The notes beneath the pieces were generated by a model. That model had not been told where the DNA came from, made no database searches, and saw only the letters and a program-made list of their open reading frames with translations. Positions 13,442-64,000 of a stretch of DNA of 64,000 nt are shown in pieces. This DNA comes from a bacterium (GTDB lineage: Bacteria > Patescibacteriota > Minisyncoccia > UBA6257 > WO2-44-18). The position numbers and the translations under genes were made by a program. The stretch spans positions 75,323 to 139,322 of the forward strand of contig JAUSKF010000005.1 in NCBI GenBank assembly GCA_030646995.1, given 5' to 3'. The stretch's first letter is position 1; the number at the start of each line of letters is the position of its first letter.

Positions 13442-13483
13442 CTATTATATACAAATTTCCTCGAATGTACAGACCGTCTATTG

Positions 13484-13554
13484 AGCGGGTAACGGGAATC
13501 GAACCCGTGTATTTTGATTGGCAACCAAACGTACTACCATTGTACTATACCCGC
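13484..13554 (-). tRNA. tRNA-Gly (anticodon GCC)
   Basis: Reverse complement folds as a cloverleaf: acceptor GCGGGTA/TACCCGC, D-loop AATGGTA, anticodon loop TTGCCAA, T-loop TTCGATT. Confidence 0.85.
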
Positions 13555-13567
13555 GACAATGAAAATC

Positions 13568-14221
13568 TTATATCGTTTTTGCCAATAAATCAATCCATTT
13601 TAAGACCTTTTCTTTAAGGTAGGCACTATTCACGATTATCATACAGATTCCATTTTCTAGCCGTTTTGTGGGGTGTCGGCCGACTATGTATTGAGTTTTA
13701 TAGAATTGATTTCGCGGCAATCCAGAGGTTTCCGACCAAAATTTTTCAGCCTGTTTTTGAGAAATGTCTTTATATAATATCAATCCGACCCTAATTTTTT
13801 CTTTTGGTACTTTGAGCGCGCGATGTAGGAACTTAGTGTATAGCGCGATCATGTCGGCGCTAGAATTTGTCAGGCGTAGTGGGTTTTTTGTTTTGCTGTC
13901 GCCCTCCCCCCAATAAAGCATCAGCCCGGCAATAAAGAGGGGTTTTGATGCCTGTTGCCGAAATTCTGATTCGGCTTCAAATCGGGCTTGTTGGCGCCAC
14001 TTCAACCATTTTTCTCTGTTCGTGGAAACAAACTTTTTGATTCTCTCAGCCACCCGGGGGCTATTCGCCCTACTAAGTAGTCGTTTGACTCTTTCTGAAT
14101 CCCGGTTATTTTTGAACCATTCTGATAATGTGCTTTTGGCAATTCCCAAAGTTGTGCTAATTTCGTTGTAGCTTTTATTTTGTTGACGTAGGCTGATAGC
14201 CAGGTTCTTTTTGGGATTCAT
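13568..14221 (-). CDS. HTH-containing protein with a possible degenerate LAGLIDADG-like motif
   Basis: N-terminal HTH (SYNEISTTLGIAKSTLSEW). Internal IAGLMLYWGEGD resembles a LAGLIDADG block. The gene stops 14 nt before tRNA-Gly on the same strand. Confidence 0.4.
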   Translation of the reverse strand: MNPKKNLAISLRQQNKSYNEISTTLGIAKSTLSEWFKNNRDSERVKRLLSRANSPRVAERIKKFVSTNREKWLKWRQQARFEAESEFRQQASKPLFIAGLMLYWGEGDSKTKNPLRLTNSSADMIALYTKFLHRALKVPKEKIRVGLILYKDISQKQAEKFWSETSGLPRNQFYKTQYIVGRHPTKRLENGICMIIVNSAYLKEKVLKWIDLLAKTI

Positions 14222-14555
14222 TGCGATATAATACTTGAGTATAACACAAGAGTCCGGTTCTGGGCTACCTATAGTGCCACTTGAACGATGCTGATTATCG
14301 GCTATTACTAACCACTAGTAGCTAGTCGCTATTTTACCGGAGGGGCTTCGGACGGTCCCTTGGTGGACGGTTCACCAGTCGGACCTTCGAAATTACTCGG
14401 GGTTTGCGCAGGTTGGCGAATCGGTATTCCGGCCAAAACGTAACTTCCGACCAAGCCTAGAATTACTAAAACGACGAAGATTATTTTGAGTGTGCTTTTC
14501 ATATTGGTATAATGTAGTATATTAGAACAAATCTTTTAAGCCTGCAATAATCTAT

Positions 14556-21919: not shown

Positions 21920-21957
21920 GGCCTCATCGTCTAATGGCTAGGACAGCCCCCTTTTCC
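21920..21957 (+). pseudogene. tRNA-Glu 5'-half duplicate (pseudo-tRNA fragment)
   Basis: GGCCTCATCGTCTAATGGCTAGGACAGCCCCCTTTTCC matches about 33 of 38 positions of the 5' half of the intact tRNA-Glu at 22236. No T-arm or 3' acceptor follows. Confidence 0.5.
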
Positions 21958-21995
21958 GCCGGAGGCGGATCCTCCTTCGGAGGACACGGCACATA

Positions 21996-22230
21996 TATGT
22001 ATTATCTTTACATTCTGGAAAGTTTAGAATATAAAAGGCATTACATAGGCACGAGCGCCGATGTTAAAAACAGGCTCTCTGAGCATAACAGCGGTGAAGT
22101 GCGGTCAACTAAGGCTTATCGTCCATGGAGGTGCGTATATTCAGAAGAATTCTTGGATAAAACATCGGCGCGCAAGCGAGAGTTGTTCTTGAAAAGAAAC
22201 GCCAAGGCAAGAGAAGATTTGTTCAAGTAA
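21996..22230 (+). CDS. GIY-YIG nuclease family protein (YhbQ/UPF0213-like)
   Basis: YYLYILESLEYKRHYIGTSADVKNRLSEHNSG...PWRCVYSEEF...KRELFLKRN is the GIY-YIG (URI) domain signature. The start is set at the internal ATG because the upstream part of the ORF runs through the tRNA fragment. Confidence 0.78.
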
Positions 22231-22235
22231 AATAT

Positions 22236-22310
22236 GGTCTCGTCGTCTAGTGGCTAGGACATGCCCCTTTCACGGGCAGAACACGGGTTCGATTCCCGTC
22301 GAGACTACCA
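22236..22310 (+). tRNA. tRNA-Glu (anticodon UUC), CCA encoded
   Basis: Cloverleaf: acceptor GGTCTCG/CGAGACT, anticodon loop CTTTCAC, T-loop TTCGATT, 3' ACCA. The tsaD ATG follows immediately. Confidence 0.9.
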
Positions 22311-50180: not shown

Positions 50181-50193
50181 AACCCGCCAATTG

Positions 50194-50276
50194 TGCTCGG
50201 GACAGGAGTTGAACCTGCACGCCCTTGCGGGCACAAGCACCTCAAGCTTGCGTGTCTGCCGTTTCACCACCCGAGC
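50194..50276 (-). tRNA. tRNA-Leu (anticodon GAG)
   Basis: Type II tRNA: acceptor GCTCGGG/CCCGAGC, anticodon loop TTGAGGT, long variable arm (TGCCCGCAAGGGCG), T-loop TTCAACT. Confidence 0.85.
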
Positions 50277-50280
50277 TTAT

Positions 50281-50943
50281 TTAAATGATATTCTTCTTGC
50301 CTATTATAGCGAGTACGGCCCTAATTTTCAAATATTTTCTTCTAAGACTCGTGGCGTGGTTTTTATAATATATCTTTGGCAACAATTTTAAAGATTCCGC
50401 TTTCGCATATTTTAGCTGATAGCACACACCCTTTTGGCCACGTCCGGTTACGTGGCCTTTGATATTCAATAATTCGTAAATTCGCTCACGCAGCCAGTTA
50501 ATGTGTTTTTTGCTTGCCGATACAAACTCGGTATAAAACATAAAACTGGACCTCCATCGGGGATCCCAGTAGGAATAGAATGTTCCGTCGCCATCAAAAT
50601 GTCCGCGTAAAAAATCAAAAAAGTATTGATTTGGTATTTCTAATGCGCTCATTACCTTCGACTTGTTCGCCATTAGTCCAATTTTTAATAAAAATCTATA
50701 GAAATTCACGTCACCAAACTGGATACGAAATGCCTTTTTACCAGTTTGCCCGGACGTTTTTTGTCCGATTTTATTTTTAATTCCTAGGCACCCCTTAAAA
50801 TTCTCTAGTTGTTCCTTGTCCTTGGAAGTTAGATCAAAGTGCCGGCTATCGGATGATAAATTGCCATCGGTGGTTAAAAGCCCGATTGCGTAGGCAAAGT
50901 TGGGCGACCATTCAAGTTTTATTTTGTTTTTCGGTAAGGCCAT
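50281..50943 (-). CDS. LAGLIDADG-family homing endonuclease (double-motif)
   Basis: Two LAGLIDADG blocks, AYAIGLLTTDGNLS and FLRGHFDGDGTF, at the typical spacing. Free-standing, with its stop 4 nt from tRNA-Leu(GAG). Confidence 0.82.
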   Translation of the reverse strand: MALPKNKIKLEWSPNFAYAIGLLTTDGNLSSDSRHFDLTSKDKEQLENFKGCLGIKNKIGQKTSGQTGKKAFRIQFGDVNFYRFLLKIGLMANKSKVMSALEIPNQYFFDFLRGHFDGDGTFYSYWDPRWRSSFMFYTEFVSASKKHINWLRERIYELLNIKGHVTGRGQKGVCYQLKYAKAESLKLLPKIYYKNHATSLRRKYLKIRAVLAIIGKKNII

Positions 50944-50993
50944 TTCTTACTATTATACCTCAAGGTAATAGCGTATGCCAATGAGGGGGTAAT

Positions 50994-51022
50994 CAAAAAG
51001 ACCCCTTTCGGGGTCTTTTTGA
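50994..51022. terminator. bidirectional terminator
   Basis: AAAAAGACCCC-tttc-GGGGTCTTTTT perfect hairpin between the homing endonuclease and rplS. Confidence 0.7.
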
Positions 51023-51412
51023 TTAGGATTTAGTTTCGACGGTTTCTTTCTTGGATTTCGCCGCGGTTTTAGTAGCGGCTTCTTTTTCTCCGCCGGTTCC
51101 TAATTTCTGACGAGTCTGACGCTTGGAAAGATCTCGGACATAGTAAATCTTGGAGCGGCTTACTTTTTTAGAGAAGCTGATTATATCCACCTTATCAATA
51201 CGAGGGGAGTAGATTGGAAAGATTTTTTCTACGCCTATTCCGGCAACAGTCGAGCGGACGGTAAAGGTGGCGCCCGGTTCAGAGCCATGTTTACGAGCCA
51301 AGACTAAGCCTTCAAAGCGGCTAACGCGGTCTTTGTCGCCTTCTTTTACCTTTTCCCAAACCCGGACAGTTGAGCCGGCTTTTATTTTACTTAATGTTTC
51401 TTTGGAAATCAT
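51023..51412 (-). CDS. rplS: 50S ribosomal protein L19 (with C-terminal basic extension)
   Basis: L19 core (GSTVRVWEKVKEGDKDRVSRFEGLVLARK...) with a lysine-rich tail. Confidence 0.88.
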   Translation of the reverse strand: MISKETLSKIKAGSTVRVWEKVKEGDKDRVSRFEGLVLARKHGSEPGATFTVRSTVAGIGVEKIFPIYSPRIDKVDIISFSKKVSRSKIYYVRDLSKRQTRQKLGTGGEKEAATKTAAKSKKETVETKS

Positions 51413-63926: not shown

Positions 63927-64000
63927 TGCTCGGGGAGAGACTCGAACTCTCATGATGTTGCCATCGGTGGATTTTGAGTCCACTGCGTCTGCCATTCCGC
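63927..64000 (-). tRNA. tRNA-Leu (anticodon CAA), 5' end beyond the window
   Basis: Reverse complement shows a D-arm, anticodon stem GTGGA/TCCAC with loop CTCAAAA, a long variable arm (GATG-GCAA-CATC), T-loop TTCGAGT and 3' CCCGAGC-A. A hairpin terminator lies at 63885-63925. Confidence 0.75.

Follow-up and report, generated by a model that had tools for sequence, protein, structure and literature searches.

LAGLIDADG and GIY-YIG genes on probable homing cassettes that occupy bacterial tRNA genes at the anticodon loop

We analyzed a 64-kb stretch of a Patescibacteriota genome (contig JAUSKF010000005.1; here called the window, 64,000 nucleotides [nt]) in which several open reading frames (ORFs) stop directly upstream of tRNA genes. 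Identical proteins in the databases, and relatives of these, point to a metagenome-assembled genome of Parcubacteria type. Two of these ORFs, encoding a LAGLIDADG protein and a GIY-YIG protein, are probably free-standing homing-endonuclease genes on cassettes that occupy a tRNA gene at the anticodon loop. Each has a displaced 5′ half of a tRNA on its upstream side and that tRNA in full downstream. The initial annotation of this DNA rightly placed the ORFs directly 5′ of tRNAs and outside any intron or intein but missed the displaced 5′ half; because this fragment lies upstream of the ORF, the two cassettes sit within a tRNA gene and not merely beside it. Since a complete tRNA is rebuilt directly downstream of the ORF, insertion is apparently harmless without splicing. 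The homing or selfish nuclease reading first offered for all three ORFs is supported for the LAGLIDADG and GIY-YIG loci; the third ORF, which shows similar behavior in genomes, encodes a helix-turn-helix (HTH) protein with no demonstrated nuclease fold.

The window carries six complete tRNA genes and a seventh cut by the window end (ARAGORN and Rfam). At three of the six complete genes, an ORF stops a few nucleotides 5′ of the co-oriented tRNA: the LAGLIDADG ORF (50281-50943, minus strand) 4 nt before tRNA-Leu(GAG), the GIY-YIG ORF (21934-22230, plus strand) 5 nt before tRNA-Glu(UUC), and the HTH ORF (13568-14221, minus strand) 13 nt before tRNA-Gly(GCC), in line with the 4 to 14 nt originally noted. 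Such spacing could arise by chance in a compact genome in which many ORFs end near the next gene; intergenic spacers are short across the window, and the FtsH stop codon lies 56 nt before a tRNA-Ile. However, the pattern recurs in other genomes for all three families, with the same family 5′ of the same tRNA in 73/73, 7/7, and several more loci from differing lineages and neighborhoods. Because of this recurrence, we give chance adjacency a negligible probability.

The LAGLIDADG locus comprises the following features (window coordinates).

50193-50276, minus strand: complete, presumably functional tRNA-Leu(GAG) (ARAGORN; Rfam tRNA 49.9 bits, full length)
50281-50943, minus strand: gene for a predicted double-motif LAGLIDADG endonuclease, 220 amino acids (Pfam, PDB profile, AlphaFold2 [AF2]/Foldseek, PHROGs)
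50303-50331, minus strand: promoter-like site TTGAAA-17-TATAAT in the last ORF codons (promoter scan, 11/12 matches)
50952-50981, minus strand: promoter-like site TTGGCA-18-TATAAT (promoter scan, 11/12 matches)
50957-50982, minus strand: displaced tRNA-Leu(GAG) 5′ fragment, D-loop through anticodon loop, ATTGGCATACGCTATTACCTTGAGGT (sequence; a block shared by the upstream regions of nearly all LAGLIDADG ORFs)
50990-51025: terminator-like hairpin after rplS with a 16-pair stem (terminator scan)
51023-51412, minus strand: rplS (ribosomal protein L19), the conserved left neighbor of the tRNA-Leu(GAG) site (ORF; Pfam Ribosomal_L19 on the same gene in contig L001)

The identification of this ORF as a double-motif LAGLIDADG endonuclease gene was borne out by profile, motif, and fold comparisons. 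The protein matches Pfam LAGLIDADG_3 at 25.9 bits (cut-off, 22.5) and, in a PDB profile search, entry 2dch (E = 7.5e-6). Its two motifs, AIGLLTTDG (D26) and LRGHFDGDG (D119), each contribute an Asp that is invariant in 22 homologs. The AF2 model contains the alpha-beta-beta-alpha-beta-beta-alpha fold twice, with two motif helices ending in Asp, and its top Foldseek match is I-Tsp061I (E = 6.5e-9), followed by other LAGLIDADG enzymes; PDB yielded 107 matches at E ≤ 1e-3, and among the matches listed, 50 of 50 are LAGLIDADG-fold proteins. Sequence and model thus indicate a genuine two-motif LAGLIDADG enzyme with predicted endonuclease activity. The protein also aligns with positions 106 to 298 of the 308-position profile phrog_4645 (“endonuclease”; E = 6.5e-33), so phage relatives exist, with approximately 100 extra N-terminal residues.

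A scan of genomes, one per species, returned 486 loci with a LAGLIDADG relative, 80 of which were fetched; the genome loci in these comparisons were chosen for presence of the gene. In all 73 loci with enough downstream sequence, tRNA-Leu(GAG) (once with the anticodon AAG) follows directly 3′ on the same strand. The distance from stop codon to tRNA ranges from −36 to +21 nt, with one gap of 52 nt; in 18 loci the reading frame stays open up to the tRNA and extends 15 to 36 nt into it. The gene rplS is the immediate, co-oriented upstream neighbor in 70 of 81 loci. No tRNA was called in the remaining seven of the 80 loci (L003, L009, L012, L015, L016, L019, and L029), whose contigs end 19 to 87 nt past the LAGLIDADG stop codon. 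These seven contigs break inside tRNA-Leu right after the cassette, as does L001, the Logan contig with the LAGLIDADG gene of the window itself. Such breaks could reflect occupied and empty alleles that coexist in the sampled populations or a duplicated tRNA segment that confuses assemblers.

Upstream of almost every full-length LAGLIDADG ORF is a conserved block, ATTGG(C/T)A(T/G)ACGCTA..CTTGAGG(T), that corresponds to tRNA-Leu(GAG) from the D-loop to the anticodon loop; tRNA homology stops right after the anticodon loop, and in most loci (G)TATAAT begins at that point. Because the displaced fragments are too short for profile searching (an nhmmer search with a tRNA-Leu 5′-half profile found just 6 of 96 upstream regions at E < 0.01), we counted the motif against background instead: it occurs in 68 of the 96 regions upstream of LAGLIDADG ORFs and 6 times in 1,727 kb elsewhere outside tRNAs. 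Most displaced fragments lack the acceptor strand, and L033 and L058 retain intact 5′ halves that include it. A part of the host gene is therefore duplicated around the ORF, with one copy completing the gene, in the LAGLIDADG cassette and, as described below, in the GIY-YIG cassette; the same arrangement defines the mORFs of fungal mitochondria.

Two promoter-like sites bracket the LAGLIDADG ORF. In the upstream site (50952-50981), the −35 element lies within the displaced D-loop, the −10 element overlaps the last base of the fragment (T38) and extends into the cassette, and the ORF's ATG follows 8 nt past the −10 element; if this promoter is used, the LAGLIDADG mRNA would be nearly leaderless. 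The second site (50303-50331) lies 26 nt 5′ of the tRNA-Leu +1 position and is likely a promoter of the functional tRNA. A site with at least 10 of 12 matches is present in the 70 nt before the tRNA in 44 of 84 occupied loci, compared with 3 of 80 ORF-interior controls. One candidate explanation for the location of these ORFs, an “RNase P safe harbor” in which the ORF resides in the tRNA leader and uses the tRNA promoter, is for the LAGLIDADG cassette largely superseded by the promoter-like site in the ORF tail and the displaced tRNA half; it may apply to the GIY-YIG cassette.

The second cassette shows the same organization in a smaller form.

21920-21954, plus strand: displaced tRNA-Glu(UUC) 5′ half, nt 1-35, ending inside the anticodon (31/35 identical to the functional tRNA-Glu; z = 11.5 versus shuffles)
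21956-21984, plus strand: two GC-rich hairpins, CCGCC-GGA-GGCGG and TCCTC-CTTCG-GAGGA (sequence; kept in L177, L178, L185, and L072)
21997-22230, plus strand: GIY-YIG domain protein, 77 amino acids (MYYLYILES...), catalytic domain alone (Pfam GIY-YIG PF01541, 56.8 bits)
22236-22310, plus strand: complete tRNA-Glu(UUC) (ARAGORN, Rfam)

Pfam thus confirmed the GIY-YIG domain before tRNA-Glu, and the start of the gene needed correction. The listed ORF of 98 amino acids is over-extended, because 21934-21996 is the displaced tRNA-Glu fragment and the two hairpins in translation. Given this fragment and the homologs (78 to 112 amino acids), whose ORFs begin MYY or MYF, translation most likely starts at ATG 21997 and yields 77 amino acids. 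Among the GIY-YIG members examined, 5 of 7 (window included) are directly 5′ of a tRNA; the four outside the window are as follows.

L177: gap of 4 nt; tRNA-Glu(UUC) downstream; upstream copy of nt 1-35, 100% identical, z = 20
L178: ORF overlaps the tRNA; tRNA-Glu(CUC) downstream; upstream copy of nt 1-35, 100% identical, z = 18
L185 (labeled Margulisiibacteriota): gap of 11 nt; tRNA-Ser(CGA) downstream; upstream copy of nt 11-37, identical, z = 11
L072: gap of 5 nt; tRNA-Glu(UUC) downstream; degenerate upstream copy

The junction is always within the anticodon, after nt 35, in tRNA-Glu and tRNA-Ser alike. A promoter scan found no internal promoter in the GIY-YIG cassette. I-TevI and Seg enzymes have a separate C-terminal DNA-binding domain; because the 77-residue protein and its 78- to 112-residue homologs have none, we did not class it with them and describe it, from its sequence and genomic context, simply as a GIY-YIG domain protein with the behavior of a mobile gene.

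Two further observations concern this family. In L177, a second copy of the two hairpins lies approximately 100 nt upstream of the displaced tRNA-Glu half (locus positions ~18-60) and has no ORF; double hairpins are reportedly associated with mobile endonuclease elements in Allomyces mitochondria. The homologs in L181 and L183 (~1440-1800), which are 51 to 54% identical to the window GIY-YIG protein, are flanked by inverted repeats CCCCCACACCTTTC ... GAAAGGTGTGGGGG, which suggests a different small element with the same nuclease domain.

The position of the junctions raises the question of whether these cassettes are present or very recent ORF-bearing tRNA introns, with the upstream fragment as the true 5′ exon and the ORF spliced out. 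The anticodon loop is the classical site of tRNA group I introns, 35/36 is the unusual insertion site of Patescibacteria tRNA-Asn/Asp introns (PMC13011429), and the GIY-YIG cassette opens with two conserved hairpins. However, a complete tRNA with its own acceptor stem lies downstream of the ORF, and the acceptor strand is lost from most displaced tRNA-Leu fragments. Moreover, relaxed Rfam scans (E ≤ 10) of the LAGLIDADG and GIY-YIG cassettes detected no Intron_gpI or group II intron and, among tRNAs, returned complete ones alone, with no partial tRNAs. Neither cassette has a ribozyme core or exons that would be complete after splicing, and we consider a present or recent intron very unlikely; in the distant past, the cassettes may still have arisen from introns.

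We therefore return to homing cassettes and propose the following sequence of events. Read from its 5′ end, a cassette would contain a short leading region, then the nuclease ORF, and last a new copy of the tRNA 5′ half; in the LAGLIDADG cassette, the leading region would open with the −10 box and the last ORF codons would hold the promoter-like site. Cleavage of empty tRNA alleles by the enzymes would fall within or close to the anticodon arm, at approximately nt 36-38 in tRNA-Leu(GAG) and after nt 35 in tRNA-Glu and tRNA-Ser. When cassette DNA enters a cell with an empty site, repair of the double-strand break from the occupied allele (homing) would copy the cassette with its carried 5′ half, often with the whole tRNA, and so spread it. 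A complete tRNA directly 3′ of the ORF would result once the carried 5′ half is joined to the 3′ half already in place, or once the entire tRNA is co-converted; the 5′ half of the window tRNA-Leu(GAG) would thus belong to the cassette. The old 5′ half would stay upstream as a dead fragment whose D-loop supplies the −35 element for the LAGLIDADG ORF. The rebuilt tRNA would be transcribed from the ORF-tail promoter (LAGLIDADG) or by read-through with normal 5′ processing (GIY-YIG), altered anticodon-stem pairs would shield occupied alleles, and the ORF would later decay as deletions erode it from its 5′ side.

Occupancy of the tRNA-Leu site was assessed in a metagenome scan anchored on L19 (rplS) and not on the nuclease. 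Loci L084 to L121 stem from Hainich groundwater samples. The conserved background at the site is rplS followed by tRNA-Leu(GAG). In this sample, 34 sites are empty, with 4 to 250 nt between the L19 match and the tRNA; 15 are occupied by the LAGLIDADG gene, which runs off the contig end in four of them; 4 hold remnants, consisting of just the C-terminal part beside the tRNA (profile positions 128-215, 129-216, 152-216, and 181-216); and 5 have longer spacers and were left unclassified. Remnants always keep the ORF tail, as the promoter-like site in it would explain. Close relatives can differ in occupancy: L108 (empty) and L043 (full) share 92% L19 identity, L159 and L147 share 93 to 94% with L149, and L126 shares 91% with L048. 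On an L19 tree, which is weak because the marker is short, occupancy changes 28 times, compared with 30 ± 1.9 times for shuffled states. The initial annotation had suggested surveying relatives for presence or absence of these ORFs; in such a survey, the LAGLIDADG gene proves sporadic and not universally conserved.

Different cassettes can also be gained and lost independently within one tRNA array, as indicated by the gene order at L165 (2177-3228): rplS, tRNA-Leu(GAG) with an empty LAGLIDADG site (4-nt gap), tRNA-Val, tRNA-Phe, an HTH ORF, and tRNA-Gly.

The LAGLIDADG gene has diverged largely independently of its hosts. LAGLIDADG and L19 identities are weakly coupled (Spearman 0.30), LAGLIDADG pairs being approximately 60% identical at any L19 identity, and discordant pairs occur in both directions (L19 87% with LAGLIDADG 46%; L19 43% with LAGLIDADG 76%). 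With loci taken as unrelated, tRNA-Leu diverges in step with LAGLIDADG (Mantel rho, 0.20; 0 of 500 permutations) and not with L19 (Mantel, 0.03); within empty sites, the correlation of tRNA with L19 identity (rho, 0.12) is too weak for use. One clear co-transfer of ORF and tRNA is visible at L116, a locus with a remnant ORF. Its L19 DNA is 94.6% identical to that of L112 and 72% identical to that of L043, whereas its tRNA is 83% identical to the tRNA of L112 and 97.6% identical to that of L043. Upstream of the tRNA, L116 and L043 are 88% identical over 323 aligned nt and nearly identical over the remnant ORF, and the first 20 nt of the L112-type resident tRNA are kept in L116 directly after rplS. 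The ORF and tRNA have therefore moved together, displacing a piece of the resident tRNA; this is the one clear case in which, as in the fungal mORFs, the carried part is foreign and the displaced part native. The LAGLIDADG gene thus shows gain, decay, and loss at one fixed site together with horizontal movement, as homing-endonuclease genes do.

These data also bear on whether the LAGLIDADG protein has been domesticated, that is, whether it is a host factor, inherited vertically and transcribed along with tRNA-Leu(GAG), whose role is to regulate or mature this tRNA or to act as a maturase for the numerous Patescibacteria group I introns. The protein is 58 to 77% identical to the window protein, compared with 42 to 83% for L19 of the same loci, and is therefore at least as conserved as L19; it has 3,908 homologs of uniform length, the order rplS-ORF-tRNA is kept in most loci, the end of the ORF shares sequence with the likely tRNA promoter (and, in the 18 loci noted above, with the tRNA itself), and the structural matches include the domesticated LAGLIDADG protein WhiA. 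The conserved gene order follows from the adjacency of rplS and tRNA-Leu, which exists even without the ORF. Against domestication, the 34 empty loci, many of them close relatives (L19, 91 to 94%), have rplS and an intact tRNA-Leu(GAG) without the ORF, truncated remnants exist, and divergence is largely decoupled from the host, with one visible transfer of ORF plus tRNA. In addition, both catalytic Asp residues are invariant, unlike those of WhiA-type proteins, and a Pfam scan found no C-terminal HTH domain such as would mark a WhiA-like protein. We consider domestication unlikely. The abundance of close relatives with an intact tRNA-Leu(GAG) and no ORF likewise contradicts the suggestion, made when these ORFs were first noted, that they encode co-transcribed tRNA-processing factors; for LAGLIDADG, the evidence fits homing-endonuclease behavior instead.

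A further candidate, that LAGLIDADG is a conserved core gene (as the number of homologs, the 73/73 linkage, and the rplS synteny could imply), was rejected in view of the empty sites and remnants in the rplS-anchored sample.

Occupied alleles may be protected by changes in the anticodon stem. The displaced fragment and the functional tRNA-Leu of the same locus share the anticodon-stem strand in 0 of 64 comparisons. Stems of the type nTACC occur in 11 of 81 occupied and 16 of 34 empty alleles (Fisher p = 2e-4, with alleles taken as unrelated), which is consistent with immunity conferred by altered stem pairs. The window tRNA-Leu has a CAAGC/GCTTG stem, and the empty-site alleles of L112 and L126 are of the CTACC/GGTAG type. 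A fixed difference between occupied and empty tRNAs was sought column by column; this comparison yielded no absolute difference and just the shift in anticodon-stem pairs.

Several points weigh against homing cassettes as the explanation. The conservation of the LAGLIDADG protein described above is unusually high for a selfish gene and could also reflect a host function, and host relationships are poorly resolved by L19 because it is a short marker. The displaced tRNA-Leu fragment of the window is short and weak when taken alone (nhmmer E = 0.029, profile positions 15-39), the junction positions are the sole guide to the target site, and the 11 occupied alleles with a stem typical of empty sites make the immunity signal statistical and not absolute. 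For GIY-YIG, the 77-residue protein lacks a DNA-binding module through which it might recognize a specific site, and the homologs in L181 and L183 have no downstream tRNA. Finally, the search upstream of HTH ORFs gave no displaced tRNA fragment with a significant match, so duplication of a host-gene part is not seen for that family.

The HTH locus and the remaining tRNA of the window are as follows.

13483-13554, minus strand: complete tRNA-Gly(GCC) (ARAGORN, Rfam)
13568-14221, minus strand: HTH protein with a C-terminal alpha/beta domain of no recognized fold, 217 amino acids (HTH matches in Pfam, NCBIfam, PHROGs, and PDB; AF2 predicted local distance difference test [pLDDT] 93)
63927-64000, minus strand: tRNA, 5′ truncated by the window end (Rfam 35.1 bits)

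The AF2 model of the HTH protein consists of an N-terminal three-helix HTH, a 50-residue helix, and the C-terminal alpha/beta domain. The initial annotation took this protein, on the strength of its “IAGLMLYWGEGD” block, to be LAGLIDADG-like and a nuclease; HMM, structure, and profile-profile comparisons gave no such match. Beyond the HTH, we found no match in Pfam, NCBIfam, PHROGs, or PDB sequences, and Foldseek returned nothing below E = 1e-3 in PDB or BFVD. Residues 94-217 show no established similarity to the LAGLIDADG family. Because hhalign assigns a probability of 0.1 to 0.5% and the HTH is the sole recognized domain, a nuclease nature is not established.

The genomic behavior of this family resembles that of the other two. 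All 10 members examined (window included) are directly 5′ of a tRNA, in unrelated neighborhoods; the tRNAs are 7 Gly(GCC), 1 Phe, and 2 Ile(UAU). Three tRNA-Phe/tRNA-Gly junctions contain the ORF and three lack it. With 5,261 clusters at 50% identity, the family is both large and diverse; E106, D108, Y150, K175, and H183 are invariant and D152 nearly so, and its GEGD motif falls in register with LAGLIDADG motif 1 in two independent hhalign alignments, albeit within that same 0.1 to 0.5% probability. By analogy with mobile nuclease families, which these traits resemble, the HTH protein is probably a third tRNA-associated mobile gene. It could instead be no nuclease at all but a DNA-binding regulator or a transposase- or recombinase-like protein linked to tRNA-Gly, which would leave two nuclease loci in the window. 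Detection of just a transposase- or homeodomain-type HTH, even in divergent members, speaks for this, as do the absence of structural matches in PDB and BFVD, the low hhalign probability, and the failure to find a displaced tRNA fragment upstream; the linkage to tRNAs, the variable occupancy, the size of the family, and its invariant residues speak against it. We regard a non-nuclease as a serious possibility while leaning toward a mobile gene.

Some features near HTH ORFs deserve mention in their own right. A tRNA-like stretch, GCGACTAGCTACTAGTGGTTAGTAATAGCCGATAATCAGC (window 14290-14329, minus strand), lies approximately 70 nt upstream of the HTH ORF. It has no significant match to tRNA-Gly and no ARAGORN or Rfam call, and it may be a decayed fragment of another tRNA. 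In tRNA arrays of relatives, gaps of 0.8 to 1.1 kb occur directly 5′ of tRNAs (L056, 4739-5877; L049, 4859-5709): the L049 gap holds an HTH-family ORF before tRNA-Phe, and the L056 gap precedes tRNA-Val(GAC). The sequence TTATCCAC(A/C), identical to the DnaA-box consensus, is found just before the displaced tRNA-Leu fragment in L082/L014, L007, L028, and L044 and likewise upstream of HTH ORFs in L162, L056, and L073.

If these cassettes are what they appear to be, they would represent a third route, beside introns and inteins, by which a homing-endonuclease gene can live within an essential gene: it carries a replacement for the part that it displaces. In the present case, a bacterial tRNA would have its 5′ half replaced, and a promoter apparently comes along in the LAGLIDADG cassette. 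This would imply horizontal exchange of tRNA genes in reduced genomes, as passengers of selfish cassettes, with consequences for tRNA-based phylogeny, for annotation (false N-terminal extensions and pseudo-tRNA fragments), and for assembly (contig breaks). It would also bear on the clustering of tRNA introns and split tRNA genes at the anticodon loop. The LAGLIDADG enzyme with the tRNA-Leu(GAG) anticodon arm, and the minimal 77-residue GIY-YIG protein with tRNA-Glu or tRNA-Ser, are candidate natural enzyme/target pairs, and the large HTH-domain family is flagged as a candidate new mobile nuclease.

A broader reading, which we put forward tentatively and on balance doubt, is that a general class of homing elements, undescribed so far and independent of splicing, inhabits the tRNA genes of Patescibacteria and of certain other uncultured bacteria. 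In this class, at least three unrelated protein families would have arrived by convergence at the site immediately 5′ of a rebuilt tRNA, one of them large (more than 5,000 clusters at 50% identity) and with a catalytic domain of no known fold. If so, such elements would make tRNA genes themselves horizontally mobile and would select compensatory anticodon-stem changes as immunity; they may also connect, in evolutionary terms, tRNA genes with introns, split tRNA genes, and endonuclease genes that are free-standing.

Full-text literature searches returned no description of such a nuclease-cassette arrangement in bacterial tRNA genes, and parallels come from several other systems. The enzyme closest to the window LAGLIDADG protein, by both sequence and structure, is I-Tsp061I (PDB 2dch), likewise a monomer with two motifs; the two are 19% identical, and I-Tsp061I is archaeal and intron encoded, not free-standing beside a tRNA. 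Integrase-based elements insert into tRNA genes and restore them with a duplicated 3′ end, using tyrosine integrases and att sites, and are kilobases long. They share with the cassettes the use of a tRNA gene as a conserved target that is kept intact by a carried partial copy, whereas the cassettes have no integrase, duplicate the 5′ half, and measure 0.3 to 0.8 kb. In T4-type phages, free-standing GIY-YIG and HNH genes are found between conserved genes; break repair spreads them and co-converts the markers on either side, and SegB acts in the T4 tRNA gene region. They resemble the cassettes in being free-standing in conserved surroundings and, for SegB, at tRNA genes. In contrast to the cassettes, T4-type enzymes belong to phage genomes, have DNA-binding domains, and sit between intact genes, and we know of no duplicated tRNA half described for them.

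Homing endonucleases are also encoded in tRNA group I introns, such as LAGLIDADG enzymes in cyanobacterial tRNA-Arg(CCU) and HNH enzymes in Patescibacteria tRNA-Asn (PMC13011429). A 2026 survey of Patescibacteria tRNA introns treats introns alone, most of them without endonuclease genes, and reports 35/36 as an unusual insertion site (PMC13011429). These introns and the cassettes share the anticodon-loop target (35/36 to 37/38), the enzyme superfamilies, and a sporadic distribution. They differ in that the cassettes lack a ribozyme and split exons and would be rendered harmless by duplication of the 5′ half, not by RNA splicing.

The closest analogue appears to be the mORFs of fungal mitochondria, in which a LAGLIDADG or GIY-YIG ORF travels with a foreign C-terminal gene part and the native part is displaced; examples are known from atp6 of Allomyces macrogynus and from atp6, atp9, cox2, and nad3 of Glomus (PMC3630166). 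As in the cassettes, a free-standing ORF within a host gene moves together with a partial copy of it. The outcome is a functional hybrid gene that needs no splicing, and the native part, once displaced, decays; the carried part has a foreign sequence, an indication of horizontal transfer. The cassettes differ in that they reside in a tRNA gene of a bacterial chromosome instead of a protein gene of a mitochondrion, interrupt that gene at the anticodon loop, and apparently reuse the displaced fragment as the −35 element of the LAGLIDADG ORF promoter. They also replace the 5′ half of the gene and not its C-terminal or 3′ end, and a cassette of this kind must therefore supply transcription, including a promoter, to the tRNA that it rebuilds.

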